The notes under the pieces were generated by a model. It searched no databases and was not told the DNA's origin. It was given only the letters and a program-made list of their open reading frames with translations. From the NCBI RefSeq assembly GCF_964213995.1, contig NC_135825.1, forward strand, positions 12,152,001 through 12,216,000: 64,000 nucleotides of DNA, read 5' to 3'. This DNA is from Mustelus asterias (Eukaryota). The position numbers and the translations under genes were made by a program. Shown one piece after another: positions 4,335-60,169 of this stretch. Within the stretch, counting starts at the first letter, position 1; each line of letters starts with the position of its first letter.

Positions 4335-4361
4335 GTTTCCATGGAGATTTTTATGATCATT

Positions 4362-4884: not shown

Positions 4885-4977
4885 ATCCCTTTAAGGGGCT
4901 TTCACCATATTGGATTATTTAATTGTTTAATTTGCCGATTTGTTAACTTTTAATCTGTCAGCTTCACCCTGAATTTT

Positions 4978-8890: not shown

Positions 8891-9066
8891 TGTTCATCTT
8901 GAGGGGGAGAGGTGGCAGTATGAATCAAAAATTCCATTGCAGCCAGCATAATAGCATCAGTTTAATATGGGGCTGGTGTGAAAATTTAGATTTACTTTAA
9001 AAAGAAAATGATTACATCTTTGAAGGTCAAAGTAGACCAACCATGTACAAGTGATTGGATGGTACC

Positions 9067-9390: not shown

Positions 9391-9464
9391 AGCAGATTTA
9401 CCAACAGAGCTTCATAAAACAATATTTCATTCGTAATAATTTAAATAATACAAACAAAAGAAGG

Positions 9465-10120: not shown

Positions 10121-10743
10121 ATTGCAAACTTGAGGAATATTTTCCTGGAGCCTTTGTTGCCTCTGCAGTCTTCAGAGTCAATTCAATGAGCAATAATCTG
10201 CAATGGATCACAGGCATCTCTCAACTTGAGGGAGGGACAATTGGTTACATTTAGTGTGGGGGGCAGGAATGGGGAAAGGTGAGGAGGCAGATTTCCATAA
10301 ACTACCACAGCCGCTCTGAGGATTGAACCCCTGCCATTGGAATCATTCCGCATTGCACTCCAAACAACTGAGCCAATCAAACCCTCCAGTCTCCAGGATA
10401 TATTGAGCATGAAACTACATTAACAAGTTAACTTTTATTGGACTGAAATGTGTGGCTTCTGCATTTTAATTATATTAATCATGTAGCTTTTTAACAAAAA
10501 TAAATAGGTTAATTTATATTCACAATCAATAATGCCGTTTATTATTTGCTGGGTAAATATTTCTGTGGTACAATACTATCAACAAAATAGCTACAAATAT
10601 CACACAAATTCATTAATTTATTTTTGCTGAGTTTTTGTAGCTTTACATGTCTCCAAGTATTTCAATATCTCTGCGGGATAAACCATGCACGAGACTTAAT
10701 CTAACACTCATCATCTCGGGATCCAGCTTTGTCCCTTACTCAC

Positions 10744-10780
10744 CAGGCAGAGAAAAGATGACAAGAATCAGAATCCACAT
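10744..10780 (-). CDS. Gene A exon 1: signal peptide (MWILILVIFSLP+G)
   Basis: ATG at 10780 in acaATGT context, 37 nt hydrophobic, consensus donor CCTG|gtgagtaag, phase 1. Joins V1 in frame to give MWILILVIFSLPVSGA-LWAE. Confidence 0.9.
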
Positions 10781-10872
10781 TGTTATCTTGGCAATGTTTC
10801 GATCAGTATTTATCGTCTGTCACCCAGCTCTTTGTTGAGATGTTGAAAGGCGGATCCAATAAACTCTGATAC

Positions 10873-11146
10873 GGAAACGAAATAAGATTGAAGAAAGCAG
10901 CAAGCCAGGCCTCAGGAAATTCCACCCTTCAGAAAGCTCCAGAACGGAGGTCCCAGCTGGCCACTGCTATCACTGGTTGTGCCAGCTCTAAAGATCCCCT
11001 TTAGCTGCTGATCTCCTTGTTCCAGCAGGCACAGCTCTATATCTGCACCTTTGGTGACCTGTGGACAGTTACTGTCCGGCTTTGACAGTGTCGCTCAGTG
11101 TGGTTGATGACATCATGGGAGGTGTGATTCACCCTGACACTTCCTG
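10873..11146. promoter_or_regulatory. Candidate leukocyte-type proximal promoter motifs of gene A (paralogue 47482-47755 for gene B)
   Basis: GGAAACGAAA (ETS-IRF composite pattern GGAAnnGAAA) at 10873-10882, TGTGGTT (RUNX) at 11099-11105 and CACTTCCTG (ETS/PU.1-type) at 11138-11146, all within 370 bp upstream of the ATG. Motifs are short and function is inferred. Confidence 0.4.
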
Positions 11147-11574
11147 CACTGTTGCTGAAAACAGAAAGGCCCAGAATTTGCTGAAAATACCACAGTGTGT
11201 AAACTGGCCAATGAACTGAGACAATGAAGAGATGTCAAACGAAATAAACAGGCCACAGAATGTTCAGTCTCGTAACATCATCCTCCCTGGCCCAGAATGC
11301 GAACAATTATAAACTCTGGAGTTTCCCTTTCTCCTGGATTGAATTAATGACCTGGATTTTCCAATGAGAGGAACGGCGAAGGTTAACAAACATTCACTGT
11401 TATTATGGAGTAAATGAGGTGGTAAATATCATGGCTGATATTTTTCTCATCCCCATTCTCCTGCCTTTTCCCCATAACCCCTGACCCCCTTATTAATCCA
11501 GAACCGATCTATCTCTGTCTTAGCACAGCCAATCCACCTAACCTACACATCTTTGGACACTAAGGGACAATTTA

Positions 11575-11757
11575 GCAACTCCCCTCCCCCCCCCCTTGCC
11601 CCCAGTCCCCCCCCCCCCTTTGCCCCCAAGTCCCACCCCCTTTGCCCCCAGTCCCCACCCCTTGCCCCCAGTCCTCCCCCTTTGCCCCCAGTCCCCCCCC
11701 CTTTGCCCCCAGTCCCCCCCCTTTTCCCCCAGTCCCCCCCCCCCACTTTGCCCCCAG
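11575..11757 (+). repeat. C-rich minisatellite (TTGCCCCCAGTCCCCCCC-like units; paralogue ~48184-48345, 21 bp shorter)
   Basis: About 8 tandem ~21-bp units with long C runs. Confidence 0.9.
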
Positions 11758-11932
11758 TTCAGAGAGGATGGTGGGTGCAATTGATAGGGGGAGGAGGGTC
11801 ATGAATCAGGAATGGTCCCTCCCACTTGTGAAAATTGAGGATTTGGGACTGAGTTTGACTATTGTTCAGTGAGCCAACTCCGGCACAATGAGCTGAATCA
11901 ATTCCTTCTGTTCTGTAGTTTCTAGAGGGCGG

Positions 11933-12927
11933 GGGGTGATTCTCGTGATCTGCAACTTTTCCGGCCGGTCAGGCTGGGTGCTACGCGTCCTCGGCCTTTT
12001 TCTGGGATTTGCGCATGCGCCGGGAATACATGCGCTTCTCCCAGAGACGGAGAATAGTCGGAGTCCAGACCACGCTGGAAATCGGCGGGAAGACGGGTAA
12101 GTGATTTGCAATTATCGGGAACTTGCCGGGCCCGATTGAATCTCCCACCCCACCAGGAGCACTTCATTCCGGCGGGGTTTAGAGAAGATCCCCACATTCG
12201 GGGAACTAGCGGGAGACCCCGCCGGAATGAAGGGCGCAACATCGGAGCCCCGCAGCGGGTCAGGTGCCGCCCTGGGCATGGACACCCTGGCAGTGCCAGC
12301 CTGTGCCCCCGGCACTGCACAAGGTGCCAATTGTCCATGCCCAGAGAGTGCCTTGGCGCTGCCACTGGGCATCGGGCAATGACAAGGGGGCAAGGCCCAT
12401 TGTGGGTGGAGCCGAGGGGTAATCAGTGGGGGGAGTGTCCCGCTGCCACTCTGCATGGTGATCGGTCTGGGCTGGGTGGAAGCCAGCGATCAGGGCAGGC
12501 TGTGGCGTGGGGTGGGGGGGTTCTGCTGGGGTGAGGGTGAGGGTGGTGGTGGGATCGCCACCAATGGGTGGGTGTGCTGGTCATCGGGACGCTCTGGGGC
12601 GGGGGATGGGTCAGAGCTGGCCCAGGAATTGTCTTGAGGGCCGCGATCAAGGTGTGTGGGGGGCCTGAGGGACAGCACTGTGGGGGTCCCGGGCTGGCCA
12701 GCAAACGGGGAGACTGACAGATCGGGGCCACTGCACATGCTCAGAGTTCCGGAGCTGTCAGACTCCGGCGTGAATAGGCCCCGCCCCCTGGGTGTTCAAT
12801 AAGATTCCCGATTGTGACCTCGGCATTGCACAGAGTGCGGAGATTCGAGTGAGAAACTGCACTGAAAAAACAGTCGTGATCCAGAACAGTTTTCCCACAA
12901 ATTCAGCACTTTTGGGAGAATCGCCCC
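11933..12927. mobile_element. Putative non-autonomous DNA transposon (MITE-like, GC-rich; paralogue 48521-49528)
   Basis: Ends GGGGTGATTCTC and GAGAATCGCCCC are inverted (11/12 match). The same terminus GGGGCGATTCTCC recurs at ~13686. No coding capacity and no TSD confirmed. Confidence 0.55.
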
Positions 12928-14204
12928 ATAGGTTTCTAATATTCACTCCCTGATGCCTCTCTCTGGGGTAACTTGTCCGCACCATGGTGGAGCTGATATG
13001 ATCCCTGGTCATTCCTTCTTCACCCTGAATCATCTGATGTTCAAGAAATGTAGCAACCCCCGTGCTGTTTGCCTGTGACAAATTCTGTATCAATGCTGAT
13101 CTTCTCACTGCTGCAAACATAGCTCTGCATTTGGTATCTGACACCTATTGTACATTCACAGGGTTTCTGTCTCACACCACCCTGAGGATAGCAACACATT
13201 TTTCTTGCAGATTCAAACCATGAACATTGCAAGTTGCAGCAAACATGAAGCCACATTTATTTCCAATGTCAATCTCTCTCTTTGCCTTTCTCATCAACCG
13301 TTAAAGAATTTGAGGAGTTAATGGAATATTGCTGTAAATTGGTGCTTATTTAGGATGGAGTCGTCACTCACAGAATTCCATACTCAATAAAAAATGATCA
13401 AACATTGGAATCATTTGGAAAATTCAGAACTCTGATTACAATCTGTTACACGTGGGTAAGAACTTCACTCTGAGTAAATCTAAAGTTAGGACTCTCACTG
13501 ACCACAGCCTTGGGTGGAGAAACATGTTTATTTTTTATTATTAACTCATTTGTGGAATCAGCAACAACAGCAATAACTTTCTCTTTATAAAGTACCTTTC
13601 ACTCAGCAAAACCTCCTCCGACATTTTACAGGAATGTCATCAGGCAAGTGTTGCTGCTGAGGCAAAGATTAGAGGGGGGGAGGGGGGGGCGATTCTCCCA
13701 TTCCGACCCGTGAAGTTTTGGGCGCGTCGGGTTGGGAGATGTGCGTGTCGGCCATTTCGCGGGATCCCCGCGAGCGTTTACGACCCACGCGCATCTCCCA
13801 ACCGGAAAAAAAATGGCACCGTTGGGACCGCGCTGAAAACCGGCCTACCACTAATTTGCATCACTTACCATGCTTTCGCATGCTATTATTGGGAGTTACT
13901 GGCTGCTTTTTACATCTCCTCCATTAGCTTTGAGAAAATGGGGGATCTTTCTTAAACCCCCCTGACTTAATGTAATTGTAACATTTAACAATTAATTAGC
14001 CATTAAACGGGCCACAGAATGTTCAGTCTCGTCACATCAGCCTCCCTGGCCCAGAATGTGAACAATTATACACTCTGGAGTTTCACTCTCTCCTGTATTG
14101 AATTATTGACCTGGATTTTCCAATGAGAGGAACGGCGAAGGTTAACAACCATTCACTGTTATTATGGAGTAAATGAGGCGGTAAAGAGGGTACGCATGTG
14201 CAAT

Positions 14205-21382: not shown

Positions 21383-21569
21383 AAGAGTTTTAACAACACC
21401 TGGTTAAAGTCCAACAGGTTTATTTGGTAGCAAATACCATTAGCTTTCAGAGCGCTGCTCCTTCATCAGATGGAGTGGGAATTTGCGCTCAAACAGGGCA
21501 CAGAGACACAGAATCAAGTTACAGAATACTGATTGGAATGCGAATCCCAAAGCCAACCAGATCTTAAAG
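21383..21569 (-). mobile_element. Penelope-like element pLTR fragment (187 bp) with 9-bp TSD ACCAGGAGG
   Basis: Homologous to the termini of the GIY-YIG-bearing element at 58359-59301; flanked by accaggagg at 21374-21382 and 21570-21578. Confidence 0.8.
21437..21473 (-). ncRNA. Minimal type I hammerhead ribozyme motif within the Penelope pLTR
   Basis: Minus strand: CCAU-CUGAUGA-A-GGAGC-AGC-GCUCU-GAAA-GC-UA-AUGG. Stem I CCAU/AUGG, intact core CUGAUGA/GAAA, stem II GGAGC/GCUCU, palindromic AGCU helix III, UA cleavage site. Confidence 0.7.
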
Positions 21570-21632
21570 ACCAGGAGGGCAGACCCACTGGAGATGCTCA
21601 GGTGAGTGCATCGCTCAAAGTTACTGTCAAGG

Positions 21633-22520
21633 GGCAGTGTCCATTCAGTGCCAGGGGTCAGTGCCAGGGCAGTGCCCATGCTGTGCCAGTGGTCAGTGCC
21701 AGTGTCAGTGTCCATTCAGTGCCAGGGGTCAGTGCCAGGGCAGTGCCCATGCTGTGCCAGTGGTCAGTGCCAGTGTCAGTGTCCATTCAGTGCCAGGGGT
21801 CAGTGCCAGGGCAGTGCCAATGCTGTGCCAGTGGTCAGTGCCAGTGTCAGTGTCCATGCAGTGCCAGGGGTCAGTGCCAGGGCAGTGCCCATGCTGTGCC
21901 AGTGGTCAGTGCCAGTGTCCATGCAATGCCAGGGGTCTGTGCCAGTGTCAGTGTCCATGCAGTGCCAGGGGTCAATGCTGGGGCAGTGTCCATGCAGTGC
22001 CAGTGGTCAGTGCCAGTGTCAGTGTCCATGCAGTGCCAGGGGTCAATGCTGGGGCAGTGTCCATGCAGTGCCAGTGGTCAGTGCCAGTGTCAGTGTCCAT
22101 GCAGTGCCAGGGGTCAATGCTAGGGCAGTGTCCATGCAGTGCCAGTGGTTAGTGCCAGTGTCAGTGTCCATGCAGTGCCAGGGGTCAGTGCCAGGGCAGT
22201 GCCGATGCTGTGCCAGTGTTCAGTGCCAGTGTCAGTGTCCGTGCAATGCCAGGGGTCAGTGCCTGTGTCAGTGTCCATGCGGTGCCAGGGGTCAGTGCCT
22301 GTGTCAGTGTCCATGCAGTGCCAGGGGTCAGTGCCAGTGTCCATGCAGTGCCAGTGGTCAGTGCCAGTGTCAGTGTCCATGCAGTACCAGGGGTCAATGC
22401 TAGGGCAGTGTCCATGCAGTGCCAGGGGTTAATGCTGGGGCAGTGTCCATGCAGTGCCAGTGGTCAGTGCCAGTGTCAGTGTCCATGCAGTGCCAGGGGT
22501 CAATGCCAGAGGCAGTGTCG
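21633..22520 (+). repeat. CAGTGC-based composite minisatellite (~885 bp)
   Basis: Tandem variants of CAGTGCCAGGGGT / CAGTGCCAGTGT / CAGTGTCCATG. Confidence 0.95.
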
Positions 22521-22876
22521 GGGGATGGGGGGGGCGGGGGGGGGGGGGGGGTGCATGAGGTTGTGCAAGGGGAGGGGGCTTCCGTTTTCACTTTTGTGCA
22601 TCAAGTTGACTTTCAAAAATATCATTTTGATCTTGAAGAAACTGAAATTTCTGGTGGGATGGGCAGTATCCTGTCCCTTCAACATTTATACACATATTCT
22701 TCACCATATTTCTTCACCGCCTCTTTTCCCGCCCCTGCCACACTTGGAAATGAAAGGTAAAATTCCCCCCTGTGTTTAGTCCTGTGGACATTGACATCAG
22801 TGCAAGTTTCTCTGCACAATATCTGTGATAATTACAAAGTGCTCAGAATGATTGTTGTAAAGTTCATAATCCTCAC

Positions 22877-35235: not shown

Positions 35236-36240
35236 TACTGGCACCTCCCACCAGGCACCAGGCAGTGCCAATGTGGGTGGTGCTGGCGGGGGAGTTGGCA
35301 TTCTGGGGGGTGGGGCCTATTGGGGGCTCAATGTGTTGGGGGGTTTTCAGTGACACTGTGCACTGGGATCAGTGTGAGAAGGAGAGAGGAGGGGGACCAG
35401 GGCTGGCTATCTGGGTGGGGGGAGATCGGGGCTGGCCCAGGAGAGCTCTGGTAGGCCAGTGATTGGATGGTTGTGGGGGGTCGGGATGGCCAGCGATCGG
35501 GAGGCTAGCGGTGAGGGGGCCACTGTGCATGCGCCACTCTCCGCAGTGACAGATCGGTGTGTGTGCAGTGGCTCACTCAGCACTATACTGCCAGCCTCTC
35601 TAGTGGGATTTGGACCCGCTCACCACATTTCAGAGTGAATCAATCTGTGTTGGAGAATCGTTCTGGTCCGTCCCTTATGTTGTCAAATGAGCCTCTTCAG
35701 ACACTGGAGTTGCAACACATCAAGGAAGCTGATCAGGAAACGTGTACTCGCTGTGTTGTGGGATAGCCCGTCAGTGAGTTGCTTGTCTCTGTTCATTCCT
35801 TTGTCTTGTGGAGCTCAGGGTCTGTGTGGAGGAGGCAGTTGCTGCTATTGGTGCTATTGGTCACCTGGGTCCTCATCTGAGGCCCAAAATAAAACAGCCT
35901 GAGAACCACCCATGCTGATCTGATAGATACAATCACCAAAATGTAACCCAGAAATACACATTACCATCTCTGTTGTGAAAGTCTGTAAATACTGATATTA
36001 AAACCTTTCACACAATCAGGCTAGAAATAAGCAGTGAGGTTCCAATGCTCCTTGGTATCTTTCCCAGTCACTTCTTCAGCCTCCCCCATTGCCTCTGTCT
36101 TCTGCCCTTGCTCAGTAACCCGAGCAGCCATTGTTAGATTCCACTAATTGCACTCACTGAGCGATTAATAGACTGAAATTGATAACCCGTCTCTCACTGG
36201 GGGGATTTGATCACACACGGATTGACACATTTAATGTTTC

Positions 36241-36536
36241 TGATGCGTGACAATTAAGCACGTGGAACCAAGGCTTCGATATTGAAGGCTTTTATTGTGT
36301 AACAATGGAACTACTAACACGAATACACCAGTTCAGACTGAAGGGGTCCTGCCGGAGCAGGGGGTCTTATACCTCGCCACCGGAGGCGGGACCCCACTGG
36401 AATGTGCCATGATAACTCTTATAACAGGTAAACACCCTAACCCAACAACATTGTACAACCCCCACAGTAACAACACCCTAGCCCAACAGTAACATAATAA
36501 CAACCCCCAGTGGTGAACCAACGATGGTTCACCACA
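36241..36536 (-). repeat. 3' LTR
   Basis: Direct repeat of 40648-40943, preceded on the minus strand by the PPT. Confidence 0.96.
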
Positions 36537-36548
36537 TTCACCCCTCCT

Positions 36549-39500
36549 TTAAGAACAAAAGGTGGCGGGGTGCAAGAAAAAACAGGTCATATAAACAGAA
36601 TTCACAAGTCCAGACGGTCTGGAGGACCGCACCGACGCTGTGATCTCCTCAACACCGGTTGCGAAACCGGAGCAGGTGCTTGCGGTGGCGTTCTTTCCAA
36701 AACAACGTCTGGCTGTCCCCTCAAGGACTCCAGGGCCGGTTGGCCCTGGTGAGGCGATGGTGCAGGGGATCCTGGAACCTTTGGTGGTGGTGGTGGTGGT
36801 GATGATGGTCGCGCCGATCTCCCGAGTCTCAGGCAAGCTGTACATGGGAGTAAAAGTGTTATGCACTGGTCCCGGTGCTGACCGCGCCACGTCTCGGGAA
36901 GCAATGAGGAGTAGTGGATTCGTGACTGGGGGAATAGGAGCGACAGGAGTTGCTACGTCCCCTGCGGGCGCCAGGTCTCTAATGGAGACAGTGTCCTCTC
37001 GCCCGTCAGGATATGCCACATAGGCATACTGAGGGTTGGCGTGGAGGAGTTGGACCGGTTCGACCAAGGGGTCGGACCTGCGAGCCCTCACATGTCGCCG
37101 CAGAAGGACGGGTCCTGGGTACGTCAACCAGGCTGGCAATGAGGTTCCCGAGGACGACTTCCGAGGGAATGAGAACATCCTCTCGTGGGGAGTAGCATTG
37201 GTTGCCGTACACAGGAGGGAGCGGATAGAATGGAGTGCCTTTGGAAGGACCTCCTGCCAACGGGAGACTGGAAGGCCCCTGGATTTCAGTGCCAGTAGGA
37301 CAGCCTTCCAGACTGTAGCATTCTCCCTTTCCACCTGTCCGTTACCCCTAGGGTTGTAGCTCGTGGTTCTACTAGAGGCAATCCCGAATGAGAGCAGGAA
37401 TTGCCTCAAGTCGTTGCTCATGAACGACGAGCCCCTGTCGCTATGAATGTAGCAGGGGTACCCGAACAGGGTAAAAAGCTCACTGAATGCCTTGATGACG
37501 GTGGCAGTCGACGTGTCCGCACAGGGGACAACAAACGGAAACCGGGAATACTCGTCTATTATGTTGAGGAAATAGACATTCCGGTCCGTTGAGGGAAGGG
37601 GGCCCTTAAAATCCACACTCAGCCTCTCAAAAGGGCGAGTGGCCTTGACCAATTGTGCCCGGTCTGGTCGATAAAAGTGTGGTTTGCATTCTGCGCAAAT
37701 CCGACAGCTTCTCGTCACTGACCTGACATCCTCCACCGAGTAGGGCAGGTTGCGGGCTTTGACGAAGTGGTAGAGTCTGGTGACTCCAGGATGACACAGA
37801 TCATTGTGGAGAGCCTTCAAGCGGTCCTCCTGCATGATGGCGCATGTTCCGCGCGAGAGGGCATCCGAGGACTCATTGAGCTTCCCTGGACGATACATAA
37901 TATCGTAATTATAGGTGGAGAGCTCAATTCTCCACCGCAAGATCTTATCGTTCTTGATCTTGCCCCTCTGCGTGTTGCTGAACATAAACGCCACGGATCG
38001 TTGATCCGTGATCAGGGTGAACCGCTTCCCTGCCAGGTAATGGCGCCAGTGTCTGACTGCCTCCACAATGGCCTGAGCCTCCTTCTCCACCGCTGAGTGC
38101 CGAATTTCGGGGCCTTGAAGGGTGCGGGAAAAGAACGCGACGGGCCTGCCTGCCTGGTTTAGTGTGGCGGCTAGGGCGAAATCAGATGCATCACTCTCCA
38201 CCTGGAAAGGGATGGATTCATCCACTGCGTGCATCGTGGCTTTCGAGATGTCGCTTTTCAAAGCCTTGAAGGCCAATTGGGCCTCCGGCGTAAGTGGGAA
38301 GGTCGTGGACTTAATGAGCGGACGAGCTTTGTCCGCGTAGTTGGGGACCCACTGTGCATAATACGAAAAGAACCCGAGGCATCTCCTCAGTGCTTTCGTG
38401 CTAGCGGGCAAGGGAAGTTCAGTAAGTGGGCGCATACGGTCTGGATCAGGGCCAATGACCCCGTTTTCCACCACGTATCCGAGGATGGCTAACCTACGCG
38501 TACGGAATACGCACTTCTCCCTGTTATAGGTCAGATTCAGGCGAGATGCAGTGCGCAGAAAGTGTTGGAGATTCGTGTCGTGGTCCTGCTGGTCATGGCC
38601 GCAGATGGTGACGTTATCCAGGTACGGGAAGGTAGCCCGCAACCCGTTCTGGTCCACCATTCGGTCCATAGCACGCTGGAAGACCGAGACCCCATTGGTG
38701 ACACCAAATGGAACCCTGAGGAATTGGTATAGACGACCATCCGCCTCAAAAGCCGTATATTGTCGGTCCTCTGGGCGGATGGGGAGTTGATGGTAGGCGG
38801 ACTTAAGGTCTATGGTAGAAAACACTCGGTACTGCGCAATCTGATTGACCATATCAGAAATGCGCGGGAGAGGATACGCATCCAGCTGCGTATAACGATT
38901 AATGGTCTGACTATAGTCGATGACCATCCGAGGTTTGTTCCCGCTTTTGACTACCACGACCTGCGCTCTCCACGGACTAGCACTGGCCTGTATGATCCCT
39001 TCCTTGAGGAGCCGCTGAACCTCAGATCTAATAAAGATCCGGTCCTCAGCGCTGTAACGCCTACTTTTAGTAGCGATGGGCTTGCAGCCAGGTACCAGAT
39101 TTTTAAAAAGGGATGGTGTAGTGATTTTCAGGGTGGATAGATTGCATGCAGGGCGCTTTGGGCAATTTGGAGGCTGCGGCTGATTCCCTACTGCCAGTGA
39201 AGGGAGTGGCCCACCGTACTGTAGGATCACACTCTTCATGTGGACCATAAAGTTTAGTCCGAGGAGAATTGGCGCGCAAAGGTGAGGTAACACAAGGAGC
39301 CTGTATTGCTCGTAAATTGTGCCCTGTACCTCAAGAGTTACCATACATCGTCCTTGGATCGGTACAGACCGGGACCGTGATGCCATGGAAATTTTCTGCT
39401 TGGCAGGGAGAACCCGGAGTCCACACCTTTTAGCAGTTTCAGGGTGTATGAAACTTTCGGTGCTCCCACTGTCAAACAGACAATTCACAGTTCGACCACT

Positions 39501-40598
39501 AACCTTTATATCCATCATGGAATTTTCATGTCTGTAGTGCCTGGTCTGGTCCAGGGAGATCGACGCCACCGTTGGCCCCTGGGCGTCACTGCATGCTGCC
39601 GATGTGGATGCTGAGGACCCCTGCTGGTCGCTCCTAGTCGTCGTGGACCATGATGGCCGCCCCCATGAATCGCACATGGGCGAGGGCGCCAAGTGCAGCG
39701 ACTCCTGGTGGTCTTCCTCCTCCTCCGTCAGCCACGATGGCGCCATCCTGGGATCGCACGTGGTCGGACCTCGTGGGTACTGCGACGCTGAAGGAGATTG
39801 TCTCCGTTCTGGAGGGTTACAAGCTGCACTGCCGTTTTTAGGCTTGGACCTGCAGACTTTGCCGTAGTGGCCTTTTTTACCGCACTGGCTGCAGATTGCC
39901 GTTCTTGCCGGACACTGTTGCCGTGGATGCTTGGCCCCACCACAAAAATAGCATCGCTGGCCACCTGGAGCTGCCGCCGTCGTCGGATCGATCTGGGAGC
40001 GCGGGTTAGCGGGGCGAGGAGGGAGCTGAGCTTGCTCCAGCCACGTTGACTGCACGTGGTCCTCGGGGTACAGCGCCAAGCTCTTCGACGCCGCTTCCAG
40101 CATCACGGCCATCTCCATTGCTTGGGTCAAGTCGAGTTTCCCCTTTTCCAGCAATTTAAGCCTGATGTACGAGGACCCTACCCCTGCTACGAACGCGTCT
40201 CGGGCGAGGTCGTACATATATTGTTCGGCTGATACGTCTTTACAATCGCAACCCCTGGCAAGCTGCAGGAGCTCATTGGCGTAGTCCTCCATGGTTTCGC
40301 CCGACTGCCAACGTCGTGTAGCGAGGAGGTAACGAGCATGTATCTCGTTGGGTGGCTTCGTGTATCTTTTTTTTAGGAGCTCGACGGCACCCGGGTAAGT
40401 GGGAGCTGCACGAATGGCGAGATAAATCATGTCGCTTACCCTTGCGTGGAGGACCTGGAGTTTATCACTGTCTGTAGTGATAGCTACTGAGGCTGCCAGG
40501 TAGTCCTCGAAACACTTCCACCAATGGTCGAATGTGTTAGCTGCACCGACCGCACGTGGGTCCAGTGTCAGACGATCCGCTTTTAAGATCTGTTCCAT
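36549..40598 (-). CDS. Gag-Pol polyprotein, single ORF of 1349 aa from MEQILK
   Basis: Two CX2CX4HX4C knuckles (CYFCGGAKHPRQQC, CSQCGKKGHYGKVC), protease LFDSGS, RT (IDLKSAYHQ, VPFGVTNG, YLDN), RNase H (SDAS, EKEAQA, TDQ, SDALSR), integrase HHCC and D-D-E (VDFKG, SDRGSSF, VERENAT). No chromodomain seen. Confidence 0.95.
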   Translation of the reverse strand: MEQILKADRLTLDPRAVGAANTFDHWWKCFEDYLAASVAITTDSDKLQVLHARVSDMIYLAIRAAPTYPGAVELLKKRYTKPPNEIHARYLLATRRWQSGETMEDYANELLQLARGCDCKDVSAEQYMYDLARDAFVAGVGSSYIRLKLLEKGKLDLTQAMEMAVMLEAASKSLALYPEDHVQSTWLEQAQLPPRPANPRSQIDPTTAAAPGGQRCYFCGGAKHPRQQCPARTAICSQCGKKGHYGKVCRSKPKNGSAACNPPERRQSPSASQYPRGPTTCDPRMAPSWLTEEEEDHQESLHLAPSPMCDSWGRPSWSTTTRSDQQGSSASTSAACSDAQGPTVASISLDQTRHYRHENSMMDIKVSGRTVNCLFDSGSTESFIHPETAKRCGLRVLPAKQKISMASRSRSVPIQGRCMVTLEVQGTIYEQYRLLVLPHLCAPILLGLNFMVHMKSVILQYGGPLPSLAVGNQPQPPNCPKRPACNLSTLKITTPSLFKNLVPGCKPIATKSRRYSAEDRIFIRSEVQRLLKEGIIQASASPWRAQVVVVKSGNKPRMVIDYSQTINRYTQLDAYPLPRISDMVNQIAQYRVFSTIDLKSAYHQLPIRPEDRQYTAFEADGRLYQFLRVPFGVTNGVSVFQRAMDRMVDQNGLRATFPYLDNVTICGHDQQDHDTNLQHFLRTASRLNLTYNREKCVFRTRRLAILGYVVENGVIGPDPDRMRPLTELPLPASTKALRRCLGFFSYYAQWVPNYADKARPLIKSTTFPLTPEAQLAFKALKSDISKATMHAVDESIPFQVESDASDFALAATLNQAGRPVAFFSRTLQGPEIRHSAVEKEAQAIVEAVRHWRHYLAGKRFTLITDQRSVAFMFSNTQRGKIKNDKILRWRIELSTYNYDIMYRPGKLNESSDALSRGTCAIMQEDRLKALHNDLCHPGVTRLYHFVKARNLPYSVEDVRSVTRSCRICAECKPHFYRPDRAQLVKATRPFERLSVDFKGPLPSTDRNVYFLNIIDEYSRFPFVVPCADTSTATVIKAFSELFTLFGYPCYIHSDRGSSFMSNDLRQFLLSFGIASSRTTSYNPRGNGQVERENATVWKAVLLALKSRGLPVSRWQEVLPKALHSIRSLLCTATNATPHERMFSFPRKSSSGTSLPAWLTYPGPVLLRRHVRARRSDPLVEPVQLLHANPQYAYVAYPDGREDTVSIRDLAPAGDVATPVAPIPPVTNPLLLIASRDVARSAPGPVHNTFTPMYSLPETREIGATIITTTTTTKGSRIPCTIASPGPTGPGVLEGTARRCFGKNATASTCSGFATGVEEITASVRSSRPSGLVNSVYMTCFFLHPATFCS

Positions 40599-40647
40599 AC
40601 TCTCTTTTTTTTTGTACAGCTGTGAGTTTTCTGTTACACAATAAAAT

Positions 40648-40943
40648 TGATGCGCAACAATTAAGCACGTGGAACCAAGGCTTCGATATTGAAGGCTTTT
40701 ATTGTGTAACAATGGAACTACTAACACGAATACACCAGTTCAGACTGAAGGGGTCCTGCCGGAGCAGGGGGTCTTATACCTCGCCACCGGAGGCGGGACC
40801 CCACTGGAATGTGCCATGATAACTCTTATAACAGGTAAACACCCTAACCCAACAACATTGTACAACCCCCACAGTAACAACACCCTAGCCCAACAGTAAC
40901 ATAATAACAACCCTCAGTGGTGAACCAACGATGGTTCACCACA
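40648..40943 (-). repeat. 5' LTR with TATA-like TATAAG (40773-40778), Inr-like TTCAGT (~40746) and AATAAA (40698-40703)
   Basis: Motifs read on the minus strand; TATA-to-Inr spacing is about 32 nt. Confidence 0.9.
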
Positions 40944-41586
40944 GTTTCCATGGAGATTTTTATGATCATTTGGAACATTTGGAATATTGTGTCCAATTCT
41001 GGTCACCACACAACCAGAAGGATGTGGAGGCTTTGGAGAGAGTGCAGAAAAGGTTGACCAGGATGTTGCCTGGTATGGAGGGTATTACCTATGAGGAGAG
41101 TTTGAATGAGCTGGGATTGTTCTCCCTGGAAAGACAGAGGCTGAGGGGCAACCTGAGAGAAGTTTATAAAATTATGAGAGGTGTGGATAGAGTGAACAGT
41201 TGGAAGCTTTTTCCCAGGCAGAAATGACAATTAGAAGGACGCACAAGTTCAAGATAACGGGGGAAAGATTCAGTGGAGATGTGCGGGAGAACTTTTTTAC
41301 ACAGAGGGTGGTGGGCGCCTGGAATGCACTGCCAAGTGAGGTGGTTGAGGCACTTATATTAGCTATATTTAAGGTTTTATCTTGGTAGACGTATGAACAA
41401 ACAGGGAATAGAGGAATATAAGCATTGGTAAACGTGATCAGCGCAGGAAGGGCCTGTTCCTGTTCTGTACTGTTCTTTGTTCTTTGTTCTTTGATCCCTT
41501 TAAGGGGCTTTCACCATATTGGATTATTTAATTGTTTAATTTGCCGATTTGTTAACTTTTAATCTGTCAGCTTCACCCTGAATTTT

Positions 41587-43382
41587 CATAAGACCATAAG
41601 ACCATAAGACATAGGAGCGGAAGTAAGGCCATTCGGCCCATCGAGTCCACTCCACCATTCAATCATGGTTGATTTCAACTCCATTTACCCGCTCTCTCCC
41701 CATAGCCCTTAATTCCTCGAGAAATCAAGAATTTATCAATTTCTGTCTTGAAGACGCTCAACGTCTCGGCCTCCACAGCCCTCTGTGGCAATGAATTCCA
41801 CAGACCCACCACTCTCTGGCTGAAGAAATTTCTCCTCATCTCTGTTCTAAAGTGACTCCCTTTTATTCTAAGGCTGTGCCCCCGCGTCCTAGTCTCCCCT
41901 GTTAATGGAAACAACTTCCCTACGTCCATCCTATCTAAGCCGTTCATTATCTTGTAAGTTTCTATCAGATCTCCCCTCAACCTCCTAAACTCCAATGAAT
42001 ATAATCCCACGATCCTCAGACGTTCATCGTATGTCAGGCCTACCATTCCTGGGATCATCCGTGTGAATCTCCGCTGGACCCGCTCCAGTGCCAGTATGTC
42101 CTTCCTGAGGTGTGGGGCCCAAAATTGCTCACAGTACTCCAAATGGGGCCTAACCAGTGCTTTATAAAGCCTCAGAAGTACATCCCTGCTTTTGTATTCC
42201 AAGCCTCTTGAGATAAATGACAACATTACATTTGCTTTCTTAATTACGGACTCAACCTGCAAGTTTACCTTTAGAGAATCCTGGACTAGGACTCCCAAGT
42301 CCCTTTGCACTTTAGCATTATGAATTTTGTCACCGTTTAGAAAATAGTCCATGCCTCTATTCTTTTTTCCAAAGTGTACAACCTCGCACTTGCCCACGTT
42401 GAATTTCATCAGCCACTTCTTGGACCACTCTCCTAAACTGTCTAAATCTTTCTGCAGCCTCCCCACCTCCTCAATACTACCTGCCCCTCCACCTATCTTT
42501 GTATCATCGGCAAACTTGGCCAGAATGCTCCCAGTCCCGTCATCTAGATCGTTAATATATAAAGAGAACAGCTGTGGCCCCAACACTGAACCCTGCGGGA
42601 CACCACTTGTCACCGGTTGCCATTCTGAGAAAGAACCTTTTATCCCAACTCTCTGCCTTCTGTCTGACAGCCAATCGTCAATCCATGTTAGTACCTTGCC
42701 TCGAATACCATGGGCCCTTATTTTACTCAGCAGTCTCCCGTGAGGCACCTTGTCAAAGGCCTTTTGGAAGTCAAGATAGATAACATCCATTGGCTCTCCT
42801 TGGTCTAACCTATTTGTTATCTCTTCAAAGAACTCTAACAGGTTTGTCAGGCACGACCTCCCCTTACTAAATCCATGCTGACTTGTCTTAATCCGACCCT
42901 GCACTTCCAAGAATTTAGAAATCTCATCCTTAACGATGGATTCTAGAATTTTGCCAACAACTGAGGTTAGGCTAATTGGCCTATAATTTTCCATCTTTTT
43001 TCTTGTTCCCTTCTTGAACAGTGGGGTTACAACAGCGATTTTCCAATCCTCTGGGACTTTCCCTGACTCCAGTGACTTTTGAAAGATCATAACTAACGCC
43101 TCCACTATTTCTTCAGCTATCTCCTTTAGAACTCTAGGATGTAGCCCATCTGGGCCCGGAGATTTATCAATTTTCAGACCTTTTAGTTTCTCTAGCACTT
43201 TCTCCTTTGTGATGGCAACCATATTCAACTCTGCCCCCTGACTTTCCTGAATTGTTGGGATATTACTCATGTCTTCTACTGTGAAGACTGACGCAAAGTA
43301 CTTATTAAGTTCCTCAGCTATTTCCTTGTCTCCCATCACTAGATTACCAGCGTCATTTTGGAGCGGCCCAATGTCTACTTTT
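41587..43382 (-). mobile_element. CR1 LINE, 5'-truncated, open RT frame (paralogue of 4978-6773)
   Basis: ORF 41675-43549, same motifs as copy 1. Confidence 0.95.
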
Positions 43383-43930
43383 TGCTTTATTTGAAAGAAG
43401 CACAAACTGACACATTGCGGATACATCTGGATGTTGGGAGTTTGACTGGCTTCCCAACATATTGTCAATTTCTGTGTATTTAACCCCCTCTGTGCTCCCC
43501 CACCCACCCCCACAGCCCCACCATTCAGCGCTAAACCAACAAGGTACAATTACTACCAACTGGCTGCTCACTTCACTTTGTTAATGTCTGACGATTGGAT
43601 TGATCTGGACTGTAAAAATCTGACAGTGTGATATTTAAGACATTTCAGAGACAGGAAAATATTCTGAGCATCGCGGGTAATGTCTTTCACAATATCCTGC
43701 AGTTAAAGGAATTGTTTGTCTGATTATGTTTGAAGTTCTTGATCAGAATGTTGGACAGGCCACGAATTGAGTTTGTGTCACAAGAGTCGGATTTCCAGAT
43801 CTCTGCCCTCTAGCTGCCAGACTCTGCATTGCTGCAGAGCCTCGGGATATCGGAGCTGTCAATGTTTCCTTGTGGATAAAACATGGATCAGACATTTCAG
43901 TAATAAAGAAAATCATTCAGAATAATGTAC

Positions 43931-44251
43931 CGTAAGATATTTGCAGCTCCACGGTTACCTTTGGATCTAAGTCAGGTATATCAATTCCACAGCGATACCA
44001 TCCTGCATCTCCTGAGCGAAGATCCTCCATCGTAACAGCAAATATTCCTTGTGCCTTGTTATCTGTGATCGACATTCTCCCTCGCCGTCCATCTGGATCA
44101 TCCGTTCTCACTAAATATGAGCACTGTTCAGTCCAACCCTGACACCAATATTTCACGTTTTGTTTGTATTTCCCTTTATAATTGCAATTTATTGTGATCG
44201 ATCTTCCCACAATTCCTGTGACTTTCTTTTCTGCCCACAATGCACCTGAAA
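43931..44251 (-). CDS. Gene B exon 2: V-set Ig domain (V1), CD300/pIgR-like
   Basis: Same splice sites as 7322-7642; differs by H->Q in KYWC(H/Q)GW. Confidence 0.92.
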
Positions 44252-47200
44252 CTGAGGAGACAACATTTCAGCAATTGACCAAGTAAATAACTGCTTCATA
44301 CAGAGAGAAACATTTTAATAAGATTTACCACTGTGTACAGAGGAAACTCTCCAATACCTGTATTCATCATTCTCTTTCTAGTTTGTGATCAATGAAAACA
44401 TGAATATAGAGCCGTGCTGTCAGTGCCAAAGTACTTCACTGACAATGATTTCTTGTGAATGTACAGTGGCCATTGTTATTGTGTCACCTTGTCACTCAAG
44501 CTTTGCACTGGCGCCTCTGAATGGGTGGATTGCAGGGTCAGGTCCCACTCCAGAGACTGGAGTATAAAATCTACATTAACATTCCAGTGTAATACTGAGG
44601 GACAAGATGGCTCAGATTTTCCTCCCTCAGTCATGTTCAAAGAGCTCGGTGATGCCATTCAGGTGAAAGGTTCATCTGACACCCAGGTCTGGAGGTTCCC
44701 TGTCATGGAGAAAATCCCGGGAATGGCTGGAATTTCAAAGTCCTAAGAGTGGGAGCGGGACTGGAATCAGGCTGCATACACGATTCGTGGAGGCGAATTG
44801 TCATTAAATTCAACACCTGCCTTGATTTAAGTGAGATTTTGGATGAACAGGAGTGTGGAATCCGGTGTGTGCAGATTAGAATAGTTAAGAGAAGGTTTGA
44901 ACTTGGTGGATTCTTATGGACAGCCAGGGTATGCCTTCTGGACAGGAAAGTTACTCTTTGGAAGAGGAAAGTTACTCTTTGGGAGGGGAAAATTACTCTT
45001 TGAGGGGGGAAAGTTCCTCTTTGTGGGGAGAAATTTATTCTTTGGGACAAACTCTGGTGAGTGGTCAGGGCCAGAGTGATTATCTGGTTGTTTCAATTAT
45101 TCTATTTATTAACCATGGCGCTGGGGCACAGAAACAGGCCTTGTGTCCAGCTCACCTCCGGGCTGAGCAGCCTGTGGATTTGTTCCTGGGTCACCCGTCT
45201 CGATTCATTTTTTAATGCCTTTCCTGACTCAATGAACACGACCCAGGGATGAGATGAGGAGATTGTTTTCACTCAAGGTGTTGGGAATCTTTGGAATTCT
45301 CCACCGCAGAGAGCTTTAGATGTACAGTCTTGAAGGATATTAAACACAGAGATTTATACATTTTTGTGGTACTAACATAATCGAGGGATATGGGAATAGT
45401 GCGGGAAATAAGATTTGAGGTTGGAGATCAGTCAGGATGTTGTTGAATGATGGAGCAGGCTCAAAGGGACAAATGGCCATCTCCTGCTCTTATTTCTAAT
45501 GTTCATCTTGAGGGGGAGAGGTGGCAGTATGAATCAAAAATTCCATTGCAGCCAGCATAATAGCATCAGTTTAATATGGGGCTGGTGTGAAAATTTAGAT
45601 TTACTTTAAAAAGAAAATGATTACATCTTTGAAGGTCAAAGTAGACCAACCATGTACAAGTGATTGGATGGTACCATGGTGAGCCCGGCTGCCTCACAGG
45701 GCCAGTGACTTGGGTTCAATTCTGGCCTCAGGTGACTGTGTGGAGCTTGCATATTCTCCCATGTCTGCGTGGGATATCGCAGGGTGCTCCAGTTTCTACC
45801 TACAGTCCAAATATGTGCAGGTTAAGTTGATTGGCCATGCTAAATTGTCCCTTAATGTCCAAAGATGTATAGGTTAGGAAGTTAGTGAGGGAAATATGTG
45901 GTGTTACGGGGATAGGGCCTGGGTAACATGCTTAGCCGGAGAGTTGTTGCAGATGTGATGGGCCGAATGGCCTCCTTTTGTACTGTTGAGATTCTTTGAA
46001 GCAGATTTACCAACAGAGCTTCATAAAACAATATTTCATTCGTAATAATTTAAATAATACAAACAAAAGAAGGAAAATGGTCTGTTGGCCTTCATAGCGG
46101 GAGGATTTGAGTACAGGGATAGGGATGTTTTGCTGCAATTGTACAGGGCATTGGTATGGCCTCACCTGGAGTATTGTGTGCAGTTTTGGTGTCCTTATCT
46201 GAGGAAGGATGTCCTTGCTATAGAGTAAGTACAGTGAAAGTTGACCAGGCTGATTCCTGGGATGACAGGTCTGCTTTATGAAGAGGGACTAAGTCAGTTA
46301 GGATTATATTCACTGGTGTTTAGAAGAGTGAGGCGGGATCTCATAGAAATTTATAAAATTTGAACAGGGTTACAGAGGGTAGATTCAGAAAGAATGCCCT
46401 CAATGGTGAGGGAGTCCAGAACTAGGGGGTCATAGTTTGAGGATAAGGGGCAAACCATAAAGAACTGAGATGAGGAGAAATTTTTTCACCCAGAGGGTGG
46501 TGAATGTGTGGAATTCACTCCCACAGAATGTAGTTGAGGCCAAAACGTTGTCTGATTTCAAGAAAAAATTAGATATAGCTCTTGGGGATAAAGGGATCAA
46601 GGAATATGGGAAGAAGGGGATCAGGGTATTGAATTGGATGATCAGCCATGATCAAAATGAATGGCGGAGCAGGCTCGAAGGGCCGAATGGCCTACTCCTG
46701 CTTCTAGTTTCTATTTTTCTATGTTTCTAATTGCAAGCTTGAGGAATATTTTCCTGGAGCCTTTGTTGCCTCTGCAGTCTTCAGAGTCAATTCAATGAGC
46801 AATAATCTGCAATGGATCACAGGCATCTCTCAACGTGAGGGAGGGACAATTGGTTACATTTAGTGTGGGGGGCAGGAATGGGGAAAGGTGAGGAGGCAGA
46901 TTTCCATAAACTACCACAGCCGCTCTGAGGATTGAACCCCTGCCATTGGAATCATTCCGCATTGCACTCCAAACAACTGAGCCAATCAAACCCTCCAGTC
47001 TCCAGGATATATTGAGCATGAAACTACATTAACAAGTTAACTTTTACTGGACTGAAATGTGTGGCTTCTGCATTTTAATTATATTAATCATGTAGCTTTT
47101 TAACAAAAATAAATAGGTTAATTTATATTCACAATCAATAATGCCGTTTATTATTTGCTGGGTAAATATTTCTGTGGTACAATACTATCAACAAAATAGC

Positions 47201-47352
47201 TACAAATATCACACAAATTCATTAATTTATTTTTGCTGAGTTTTTGTAGCTTTACATGTCTCCAAGTATTTAAATATCTCTGCGGGATAAACCATGCACG
47301 AGACTTAATCTAACACTCATCATCTCGGGATCCAGCTTTGTCCCTTACTCAC

Positions 47353-47389
47353 CAGGCAGAGAAAAGATGACAAGAATCAGAATCCACAT
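47353..47389 (-). CDS. Gene B exon 1: signal peptide
   Basis: Identical to 10744-10780; ATG at 47389 and donor gtgagtaag. Confidence 0.9.
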
Positions 47390-49704
47390 TGTTATCTTGG
47401 CAATGTTTCGATCAGTATTTATCGTCTGTCACCCAGCTCTTTGTTGAGATGTTGAAAGGCGGATCCAATAAACTCTGATACGGAAACGAAATAAGATTGA
47501 AGAAAGCAGCAAGCCAGGCCTCAGGAAATTCCACCCTTCAGAAAGCTCCAGAACGGAGGTCCCAGCTGGCCACTGCTATCACTGGTTGTGCCAGCTCTAA
47601 AGATCCCTTTTAGCTGCTGATCTCCTTGTTCCAGCAGGCACAGCTCTATATCTGCACCTTTGGTGACCTTTGGACGGTTACTGTCTGGCTTTGACAGTGT
47701 CACTCAGTGTGGTTGTTGACATCATGGGAAATATGATTCACCCTGACACTTCCTGCACTATTGCTGAAAACAGAAAGGCCCAGAATTTGCTGAAAATACC
47801 ACAGTGTGTAAACTGGCCAATGAACTGAGACAATGAAGAGATGTCAAACGAAATAAACAGGCCACAGAATGTTCAGTCTCGTAACATCATCCTCCCTGGC
47901 CCAGAATGTGAACAATTATAAACTCTGGAGTTTCCCTTTCTCCTGGATTGAATTAATGACCTGGATTTTCCAATGAGAGGAACGGCGAAGGTTAACAAAC
48001 ATTCACTGTTATTATGGAGTAAATGAGGTGGTAAATATCATGGCTGATATTTTTCTCATCCCCATTCTCCTGCCTTTTCCCCATAACCCCTGACCCCCTT
48101 ATTAATCCAGAACCGATCTATCTCTGTCTTAGCACAGCCAATCCACCTAACCTACACATCTTTGGACACTAAGGGACAATTTAGCAACTCCCCTCCCCCC
48201 CCCCTTGCCCCCAGTCCCCCCCCCCCCTTTGCCCCCAAGTCCCACCCCCTTTGCCCCCAGTCCCCACCCCTTGCCCCCAGTCCTCCCCCTTTGCCCCCAG
48301 TCCCCCCCTTTGCCCCCAGTCCCCCCCCCCCCACTTTGCCCCCAGTTCAGAGAGGATGGTGGGTGCAATTGATAGGGGGAGGAGGGTCATGAATCAGGAA
48401 TGGTCCCTCCCACTTGTGAAAATTGAGGATTTGGGACTGAGTTTGACTATTGTTCAGTGAGCCAACTCCGGCACAATGAGCTGAATCAATTCCTTCTGTT
48501 CTGTAGTTTCTAGAGGGCGGGGGGTGATTCTCGTGATCTGCAACTTTTCCGGCCGGTCAGGCTGGGTGCTACGCGTCCTCGGCCTTTTTCTGGGATTTGC
48601 GCATGCGCCGGGAATACATGCGCTTCTCCCAGAGACGGAGAATAGTCGGAGTCCAGACCACGCTGGAAATCGGCGGGAAGACGGGTAAGTGATTTGCAAT
48701 TATCGGGAACTTGCCGGGCCCGATTGAATCTCCCACCCCACCAGGAGCACTTCATTCCGGCGGGGTTTAGAGAAGATCCCCACATTCGGGGAACTAGCGG
48801 GAGACCCCGCCGGAATGAAGGGCGCAACATCGGAGCCCCGCAGCGGGTCAGGTGCGGGGGTCAGGTGCCGCCCTGGGCATGGACACCCTGGCAGTGCCAG
48901 CCTGTGCCCCCGGCACTGCACAAGGTGCCAATTGTCCATGCCCAGAGAGTGCCTTGGCGCTGCCACTGGGCATCGGGCAATGACAAGGGGGCAAGGCCCA
49001 TTGTGGGTGGAGCCGAGGGGTAATCAGTGGGGGGAGTGTCCCGCTGCCACTCTGCATGGTGATCGGTCTGGGCTGGGTGGAAGCCAGCGATCAGGGCAGG
49101 CTGTGGCGTGGGGTGGGGGGGTTCTGCTGGGGTGAGGGTGAGGGTGGTGGTGGGATCGCCACCAATGGGTGGGTGTGCTGGTCATCGGGACGCTCTGGGG
49201 CGGGGGATGGGTCAGAGCTGGCCCAGGAATTGTCTTGAGGGCCGCGATCAAGGTGTGTGGGGGGCCTGAGGGACAGCACTGTGGGGGTCCCGGGCTGGCC
49301 AGCAAACGGGGAGACTGACAGATCGGGGCCACTGCACATGCTCAGAGTTCCGGAGCTGTCAGACTCCGGCGTGAATAGGCCCCGCCCCCTGGGTGTTTAA
49401 TAAGATTCCCGATTGTGACCTCAGCATTGCACAGAGTGCGGAGATTCGAGTGAGAAACTGCACTGAAAAAACAGTCGTGATCCAGAACAGTTTTCCCACA
49501 AATTCAGCACTTTTGGGAGAATCGCCCCCATAGGTTTGTAATATTCACTCCCTGATGCCTCTCTCTCTGGGGTAACTTGTCCGCACCATGGTGGAGCTGA
49601 TATGATCCCTGGTCATTCCTTCTTCAACCTGAATCATCTGATGTTCAATAAATGTAGCAACACCCGTGCTGTTTGCCTGTGATAAATTCTGTGTCAATGC
49701 TGAT

Positions 49705-58358: not shown

Positions 58359-59301
58359 AAGTCTCACAACACCAGGTTAAAGTCCAACAGGTTTATTTGG
58401 TAGCACAAGCCACTAACTTTTGGAGCGCTGCCCCTTCATCAGGAGAGTGGGAGTTCTGTTCACAAACAGGGCATATAAAGAGACAAACTCAATTTACAAA
58501 ATAATTGTTGGAATGGGAGTCTTTACAGATAATCAAGTCTTAAAGGTACAGACAAGGTGAGTGGAGAGAGGGTTAAGCACAGGTTAAAGTGATGTGTATT
58601 GTCTCCAGCCAGGACCACCAGTTACACGGTACATACTCTTGCAACTCGGCCAACGTTGTCTACCTGATACGCTGCAGGAAAGGATGTTCCGAGGCATGGT
58701 ACATTGGGGAGACCATGCAGACACGATGACAACGGATGAATGAACAATGCTCAACAATTGCCAGGTAAGAGTGTTCTCTTCCTGTTGGGGAGCACTTCAG
58801 CAGTCACAGGCATTCGGCCTCTGATCTTCGGGTAAGCGCTCTCCAAGACGGCCTACATTACACACGACAGCGCAGAGTCGCTGAGCACAGACTGGTAGCC
58901 AAGTTCCGCATACAGGAGAACGGCCTCAACCGGGATCTTGGGTTCATGTCACACTATCTGTAACCCCCATGACTTGCCTGGGCTTGCAAAATCTCACTAA
59001 CTGTCCTGGCTGGAGACAATACATATCTCTTTAACCTGTGCTTAACCCTCTCTCCACTCACATTGTCTGTACCTTTAACACTTGATTACCTGTAAAATCT
59101 CACATTCCAACCATTATTTTGTAAATTGAGTTTGTCTCTTTATATGTCCTGTTTGTGAACAGAACTCCCACCTCCCTGATGAAGGGGCAGCGCTCCGAAG
59201 ACCAGTGTCTTGTGCTACCAAATAAACCTGTCAGACTTTAAGCTAGTGTTGTGAGATTCCTTACTGTGTTTACCCCAGTCCAACGCCCTCATCTCCACAG
59301 T
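58359..59301 (+). mobile_element. Penelope-like element, 5'-truncated with an inverted pLTR and GIY-YIG remnant; 13-bp TSD
   Basis: Plus strand ~58640-58963 translates CNSANVVYLIRCRKGCSEAWYIGET...GEHF...NGLNRDLGFMSHYL* (with stops), a GIY-YIG endonuclease C-terminal part. Arms 58359-58615 and 59003-59258 are inverted. TSD ATGTACCAGGAGG at 58346-58358 and 59302-59314. Confidence 0.9.
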
Positions 59302-59369
59302 ATGTACCAGGAGGGCAGACCCACTGCAGATGCTCAGGTGAGTGCATCGCTCAAGTTACTATCAAGGAG

Positions 59370-59805
59370 CAGTGTCCATTCAGTGCCAGGGGTCAGTGCC
59401 AGGGTCAGTGTCCATGCAGTGCCAGGGGTCAGTGCCAGTGACAGCGTCCATGCAGTGCCGGGGTCAGTGCCAGGGTCAGTGTCCATGCAGTGCCAGGGGT
59501 CAGTGCCAGCGTCAGTGTCCATGCAGTGCCAGGGGTCAGTGCCAGTGACAGCGTCCATGCAGTGCCAGGGGTCAGTGCCAGGGTCAGTGTCCATGCAGTG
59601 CCAGGGGTCAGTGCCAGGGTCAGTGTCCATGCAGTGCCAGGGGTCAGTGCCAGTGACAGCGTCCATGCAGTGCCAGGGGTCAGTGCCAGGGTCAGTGTCC
59701 ATTCAGTGCCAGGGGTCAGTGCCAGTGTCAGTGTCCATGCAGTGCCAGGGGTCACAACTGGGGCAGCGTCCATGCAGTGTCAGGGGTCAGTGCCAGAGGC
59801 AGTGT
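59370..59805 (+). repeat. CAGTGC-based minisatellite, shorter paralogue (~435 bp)
   Basis: Same building blocks as 21633-22520 with different unit variants. Confidence 0.95.
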
Positions 59806-60169
59806 CGGGGGGCAGGGCGGGGGTGTGGAGGGGGGGGGGGGCGGTGCATGAGGTTGTGCAAGGGGAGGGGGGTTCCATTTTCACTTTTGTGCATCAAGTT
59901 GACTTTCAAAAATATCATTTTGATCTTGAAGAAACTGAAATTTCTGGTGGGATGGGCAGTATCCTGTCCCTTCAACATTTATACACATATTCTTCACCAT
60001 ATTTCTTCACCGCCTCTTTTCCTGCCCCTGCCACACTTGGAAATGAAAGGTAAAATTCCCCCCTGTGTTTAGTCCTGTGGACATTGACATCAATGCAAGT
60101 TTCTCTGCACAATATCTGTGATAATTACAAAGTGCTCAGAATGATGGTTGTAAAGTCCATAATCCTCAC

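Follow-up and report, generated by a model that had tools for sequence, protein, structure and literature searches.

A Ty3/Gypsy element of a shark with a putative internal self-primer that changes together with its primer-binding site

To our knowledge, priming of LTR elements without a tRNA has been shown only in the Tf elements of fission yeast. According to the accessible text of PMC7175516, PMC4600332 and PMC10085805, the 11 bases at the start of the Tf1 RNA pair with its primer-binding site (PBS), and cutting of these bases by RNase H yields the primer, and the last of these sources, in the part available, describes extra duplexes beside the primer helix that build a multi-duplex structure. 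Self-priming was also predicted from complementarity between PBS and LTR for the plant Tcn1 chromoviruses and for the TAR copia elements Houba and Osr-1 (PMC6317226, partial text), and self-priming of chromoviruses is mentioned in excerpts of PMC3601003 and PMC6934838. In tRNA-primed retroviruses and LTR elements, the 3' end of the primer is placed at the edge of U5 and the plus strong-stop DNA ends in the PBS sequence (PMC7175516, partial text). Mag elements, as characterized in the accessible portion of PMC3286476, have short LTRs, often a single ORF and a 5-bp target-site duplication (TSD), and are primed by tRNA-Leu, -Ser or -Arg.

The element described here lies in a window of 64,000 nucleotides, the whole stretch of DNA analysed, from Mustelus asterias (assembly GCF_964213995.1, contig NC_135825.1, positions 12,152,001 to 12,216,000). 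It is a complete LTR element of 4703 bp with one ORF and the Gypsy domain order, found, with all its features given below, on the minus strand. The 5' LTR (40943-40648; 296 bp, TG...CA) differs at 3 positions from the 3' LTR (36536-36241, 296 bp), and the 5-bp TSD at 40944-40948 is the same as that at 36236-36240. A perfect hairpin (11 bp, 4-nt loop) occupies the very start of both LTRs (40917-40942 and 36510-36535), its 3' LTR copy (36535-36510) adjoining the polypurine tract (PPT) directly. Further along the 5' LTR, a TATA-like box, TATAAG (40778-40773, recognized by motif match only), precedes an Inr-like TCAGTC (40743-40748), whose A at 40746, 32 nt after the TATA start, is the predicted transcription start site. 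The single gag-pol ORF, counted from the first ATG (36549-40598), encodes two CCHC zinc knuckles of the form C-x2-C-x4-H-x4-C (39852-39953), an aspartic protease (39246-39512, PF13975), a reverse transcriptase (RT; 38472-38948, PF00078) with the active-site motif YLDN at 38624-38613, an RNase H (37911-38291, PF17917/PF17919) and the zinc-binding and core domains of an integrase (37350-37832), and is followed by the PPT (36537-36548), which adjoins the 3' LTR. The TG...CA LTRs, the TSD, the PPT and the PR-RT-RH-INT order are those of Ty3/Gypsy elements (Metaviridae), the integrase-before-RT order of the Gmr1 clade is not found in it, and the top PDB match is the Ty3 Gag-Pol (E=8e-63). The window element is an intact single-ORF Ty3/Gypsy retrotransposon, and its closest named homologues are found in sharks and rays, at about 80% identity. 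The sequence-only reading of this locus had claimed two zinc knuckles and no visible chromodomain, which agrees with the present results: the knuckles were recognized by motif, their Pfam matches being sub-threshold, and no Pfam match, and so no chromodomain, was obtained at E values up to 10 for the final 250 aa of the ORF, downstream of the integrase. The YLDN of the window element stands in place of YxDD; YxDN was verified in 92 of the 121 proteins checked, the remainder having mostly YxDD, and both forms are mixed across the RT tree.

In the R region of the 5' LTR, an arm at 40711-40697 (LTR nt 233-247), the candidate self-primer, has its exact 15-nt complement at the PBS position (40646-40632). 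The 50-nt loop between them (40647-40696) consists of the rest of R, U5 and a 1-nt spacer, the A at 40647, which sits between the LTR CA and the PBS site, and it would be the template of the minus strong-stop DNA. The arm includes AATAAA, and the predicted cut falls between 40697 and 40696 (AAA/GCC, the slash marking the cut). The complementarity, the loop length, the AATAAA inside the arm and the lack of a tRNA-type TGG, all of them claimed before from the letters of this locus, were verified to the nucleotide. This arm/PBS pair is the longest inverted repeat in the element, the runner-up having 12 nt at a distance of 2.7 kb, and folding prediction of the leader assigned a pairing probability of 0.84-1.0 to all 15 pairs. 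The stem score of the window element is 15, while among 148 shuffled leaders a score of 10 was reached once and a score of 11 never. The second arm copy, in the 3' LTR (36304-36290), pairs with the PBS as well as the 5' copy does.

The same structure had also been claimed for a second copy in the window, copy A, which comprises a 5' LTR with its arm at 4102-4088 and its PBS at 4037-4023 (4023-4334, minus strand). The structure is indeed present there, but it does not count as a second independent case, since copy A belongs to a duplicate of about 37 kb: positions 1-13100, which include it, share 99.3% identity with 36589-49704, and the LTR is identical. Copy A was accordingly rejected as a replication of the structure. 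As assembled, the tandem segmental duplication of about 37 kb relates 1-26708 to 36589-64000 at 97.7-99.3% identity. Just upstream of the element, a 624-aa frame with an RT domain (PF00078), probably a LINE fragment, occurs at 41675-43549 and again at 5066-6940 (minus strand), and a GC-rich minisatellite with 36/71-nt units (21533-22548 and 59242-60072) differs in copy number between the duplicated segments.

The family was then considered in its own genome of 3.68 Gb. A junction pattern that fixed only the flanks and the first three PBS letters retrieved 1426 5'-LTR/PBS junctions, and a control pattern retrieved 0. The protein was identical in all of the 144 scored RT matches among 27159 candidates. 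Since the mean LTR-LTR differences are small (0-2.6 per ~285 nt, depending on type) and most TSDs are intact (64 of 68 whole copies), the family is young. Stems were analysed in the first 100 of the 1426 listed junctions (contigs C1-C2), where 95 copies form 13-15 unbroken Watson-Crick pairs with nine different stem sequences and the remaining 5 have one mismatch each within the first 13 pairs; the 1300 pair cells (100 copies, 13 pairs) comprise 1295 Watson-Crick pairs, 0 G:U pairs and 5 mismatches. Two of these mismatches are changes of the 5' arm only, the 3' arm keeping the paired letter, two are changes of the PBS only, and one belongs to a mixed copy that joins the arm of one stem type to the PBS of a neighbouring type. 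A TGG start was found neither in the window copy nor in the 100 copies of its own genome nor in 21 family representatives. Because nine PBS sequences coexist in one family, none of them starting with TGG and each matching its own arm, a fixed host primer is excluded by logic.

As a negative control, a AATAAAGCC-type pattern gave 62 matches, and the 30 examined belonged mostly to another repeat family with only 6-7 pairs. This other, older LTR family of the same genome (L273:783-1051, L111-L140) has AATAAAGCC and no pol match to the element; its LTR ends in TATTAC(A), followed in L273 by a TGG-type PBS, and it forms only 6-7 arm/PBS pairs. Within the family under study, one arm type is accompanied by a PBS with an extra A (L189, L200, L203, L237) or without it (L143, L167, L191, L209), and the form without the extra A has a perfect stem of 15 pairs instead of 13, the outcome expected of templated correction.

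A tree was built from 96 of the 100 copies (4 were dropped, their gag being missing or divergent), with the arm and PBS sites left out and recombination between subfamilies ignored. On it, both partners of a pair change on 12 branches, a parsimony tie splits one further change over two internal branches, and the 5 other one-sided changes are confined to single copies. The search for compensatory changes in both arms, which the sequence-only reading had proposed as a check, was thereby answered in the affirmative, the two strands changing together on those 12 branches. Per site, the arm underwent 0.80 internal changes, gag third positions 0.525 and U3 0.25, so that the arm did not differ from gag third positions (p=0.10) and was faster than U3 (p=0.0005); the all-pairs divergences were 0.205, 0.142 and 0.060, respectively. 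Transversions made up 9 of the 12 arm changes versus 22 of 105 changes at gag third positions; upstream of the arm, the R segment was likewise transversion-rich (8 of 12).

A helix needing two independent mutations per step should evolve slower than neutral and go through G:U, and transversions have no G:U intermediate. Since the arm was neither slower than neutral nor changed via G:U, the copying of one strand from the other, as befalls a primer in plus-strand synthesis, is the simplest reading. The same observations bear on a reading in which the arm primes and the PBS is untemplated, the matches being kept by selection alone with the help of DNA-level template switching in the quasi-palindrome. 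Strong selection on pairing would indeed be expected, and five mismatched copies with both arms alike, described below, fit this reading; however, two-step compensation should be sub-neutral and favour G:U, whereas the observed rate is at least neutral, the changes are mostly transversions and G:U pairs number 0. For these reasons an untemplated PBS appears quite improbable.

Additionally, one step with a possible U:G intermediate was examined genome-wide, where U:G was found in 0 copies and the opposite C:A in 7. In five of these 7, both LTRs carry the same arm and the internal sequence is nearest to the arm's type, versus roughly 0.5 such copies expected, by estimate, from change after insertion. 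Because the five have both arms alike, either conversion is incomplete or a mismatched lineage replicated. They fit a conversion that lags behind, or trans priming by a sister primer held by wobble pairing, and they may alternatively reflect a common ancestor or a G-to-A hotspot. A test for mixed stems between the window type and its nearest type recovered two copies changed in the 5' arm only, one changed in the PBS only and one old divergent copy.

Beyond this genome, a metagenome scan provided the best 80 of 512 relatives, at about 48-68% RT-RNase H identity. The gag start was located in 40 of the best 80, and 4 of these were too short upstream, which left 36 testable loci. A stem score of at least 10 was verified in 34 of the 36, versus 1 of the 148 shuffles; L034 and L061 had no stem, and the stem of L053 was off-register. 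Loss of the complementarity in related elements, a possibility raised with the original proposal, was therefore not what was found, and every main branch of the RT tree (a quick tree with no outgroup) includes elements with a stem. Twenty-one family representatives were picked by hand, the window included and duplicates and decayed copies left out. Their stems span 11-19 nt and their loops 24-66 nt, the first 12 pairs comprise 248 Watson-Crick pairs, 1 G:U pair and 3 mismatches, the arm is followed by RCC in 17 of 21, and in 20 of 21 the PBS comes after CA and one further nt. L005 differs from near-identical sisters by one matched pair change. In 15 of the 21, a second helix of at least 4 bp begins immediately behind the predicted cut (500 shuffles: mean 6.9, maximum 12), and this helix has only 2-3 bp in the window copy's own type.

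PF00385 was listed for none of 120 integrase homologues, and named protein homologues, which were compared at the protein level only, include Actinostola, Styela, Trichuris, Trichinella and Ischnura. An IMG/VR scan gave 603 pattern matches with no relative among them, a protein search from a distant homologue led to the same family again and to none older, an outgroup hunt through SH3_Tf2-1 gave integrase-first elements and distant RT fragments (24-30% identity) with no usable named reference, and the Atlas gave generic gag clusters only. L281, L284 and L292 are decayed elements with the integrase upstream of RT, which we take to be a Gmr1-like order, and L285, L290 and L291 carry a very distant RT (24-27% identity). 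In L028:2434-2734, L058:1381-1621 and L076:2887-3140, the LTR has, upstream of the arm, a run of pyrimidines that ends in CAG and resembles a splice acceptor.

The position of AATAAA in the arm had led to the suggestion that the helix occludes the poly(A) signal at the 5' LTR. For the window copy this is physically plausible, the AAUAAA being predicted to be unpaired at 0-2% in the 5' LTR versus 34-93% in the 3' LTR, but it does not hold as a conserved function. AATAAA or ATTAAA stands at the arm end in 14 of the 21 families and is absent from the arm in 7; in 3 of these 7 the hexamer is unpaired in the loop, and weak variant signals are possible in the other 4. Because 7 of the 21 families have neither hexamer in the arm, poly(A) masking is not a conserved role, and because pairing, register to the LTR end and the AAA/RCC junction are what persists, the needs of a primer appear to be what is conserved. 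Masking of the 5' signal, according to the folding model, is likely a side benefit where the arm holds the hexamer. A stricter version, in which the helix does nothing but hide the 5' signal and a tRNA fragment or another host RNA primes, draws on the predicted burial at the 5' LTR, on the mostly open 3' LTR and on the 14 families with a hexamer at the arm end. The 7 families with no hexamer in the arm, 3 of them carrying it free in the loop, argue against it; moreover, nine PBS sequences that each match their own arm cannot match one host RNA, and masking would not call for a register fixed at 1 nt from the LTR end. We regard this version as highly improbable.

The comparisons above establish a stem in a fixed register that is conserved across the clade and changes on both sides at a near-neutral rate. 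The reading that best accounts for these sequence patterns, with a probability of about 60%, is self-priming by an internal R-region primer from which the PBS is re-copied. By prediction, the leader RNA folds with its 13-15-nt R arm paired to the PBS; there is no tRNA site, and the PBS begins 1 nt after the LTR CA, where the 3' end of the primer must lie. With transcription starting some 35 nt upstream of the arm, the primer would be an internal piece of a capped fragment of about 50 nt rather than the first bases of the RNA. By analogy with Tf1, the RT-RNase H of the element itself likely makes a cut at the 3' end of the arm (AAA/RCC), which would free the primer; RT would then copy 50 nt, made up of the spacer, U5 and what is left of R, and jump to the 3' R. 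In retroviruses, the tRNA primer templates the PBS during plus strong-stop synthesis. Here, the plus strong-stop DNA would similarly run into the RNA primer and template the PBS, and a single change in the arm would reach the PBS with no need for another mutation. It was counted against this re-copying that the Tf1 self-primer is reportedly not removed, according to the title of Atwood-Moore 2006.

Two other sources of the primer have to be weighed. In Tf1-type self-priming, transcription would start at the arm and the primer would be the first 13-15 nt of the RNA. All covariation data fit this equally, and most invertebrate relatives have no TATA/Inr match upstream of the arm; nevertheless, in the window element TATAAG and the Inr-like motif, 32 nt apart, place +1 35 nt upstream of the arm, and no TATA stands 25-30 nt before it. 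Such a start is unlikely. Alternatively, the arm copy in the 3' R could prime, through pairing between the RNA ends or between two RNAs of a dimer and a cut in the 3' copy. In 69 of 72 whole copies the two LTRs carry the same arm, so both arm copies can pair, and the inheritance of arm and PBS would be coupled directly. However, the 5' copy lies 50 nt from the PBS with a predicted pairing probability of 0.84-1.0, and the same RNA would also have to act as the acceptor of the first strand transfer, which makes the 3' copy a rather improbable primer. An internal self-primer in a lineage with no chromodomain found, close to what was originally suggested, is well backed by the covariation within family and clade, by the fixed register and by a PBS too variable for any tRNA, and this support is of a comparative kind. 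The element seems, from its domains, to fall outside the chromoviruses.

If the reading is extended to the clade, a widespread group of animal Gypsy elements would have acquired self-priming independently of Tf1/sushi. Its internal primer would be cut at AAA/RCC beside the poly(A) signal and its PBS rewritten in each cycle, so that primer and site would evolve as a unit, at a higher rate than the remaining LTR and with no tie to a host tRNA. Widespread refers here to sharks and rays, cnidarians, tunicates, nematodes and insects, by protein homology, and we hold this wider proposal tentatively, at slightly less than even odds. If true, it would represent a second, animal-wide version of tRNA-free priming, with an internal primer. 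RT-RNase H would then be capable of cutting a duplex inside the RNA at a fixed motif, and self-priming would have arisen or persisted outside the chromoviruses. A freely drifting PBS may offer no fixed target for silencing by tRNA fragments, and annotation tools that depend on a tRNA PBS would overlook such elements. The window would contribute evidence, taken from within one family, for a PBS that is inherited by templating. With more than 1400 copies and nine natural primer/PBS types, this very young family offers natural variants on which the mechanism can be tested. Repbase Reports and subscription journals lay outside the literature coverage, so that a prior description is possible; within that coverage, no description of the priming of this clade was found. 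Term matches in the accessible text and/or supplements of PMC6238403, PMC12801592, PMC11117352 and PMC8556966 gave no clade name, and the YLDN motif had no match in the searched supplements of the clade literature.

Compared with the described systems, Tf1 and Tf2 of Schizosaccharomyces pombe, Tj1 and the Tf1/sushi chromoviruses are, as here, Ty3/Gypsy elements whose PBS pairs with their own R. However, the arm is here predicted to be internal and has 11-19 nt, whereas the Tf1 primer is formed by the first 11 nt of the RNA, and, unlike in Tf1, the arm ends in a conserved AAA/RCC and often overlaps the poly(A) hexamer. The elements also differ from Tf1/sushi by the lack of a chromodomain or SH3_Tf2-1 match, by the twin CCHC gag and by the YxDN motif of RT (92 of 121 proteins). 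Since some chromoviruses have no chromodomain, its absence alone is not decisive, and a twin CCHC gag is Mag-like. The second helix at the predicted cut in the relatives recalls the multi-duplex structure of Tf1, as outlined in the accessible part of PMC10085805. Tcn1 and the TAR copia elements belong to another superfamily or clade, and in the available text of PMC6317226 neither an internal arm overlapping the poly(A) signal nor a templated PBS is described for them. The Mag lineage, as far as its partial account goes, shares short LTRs, often the single ORF, and the 5-bp TSD, and differs in its tRNA-complementary PBS. In tRNA-primed elements, finally, the PBS is fixed by an invariant host RNA, whereas here primer and PBS drift together.
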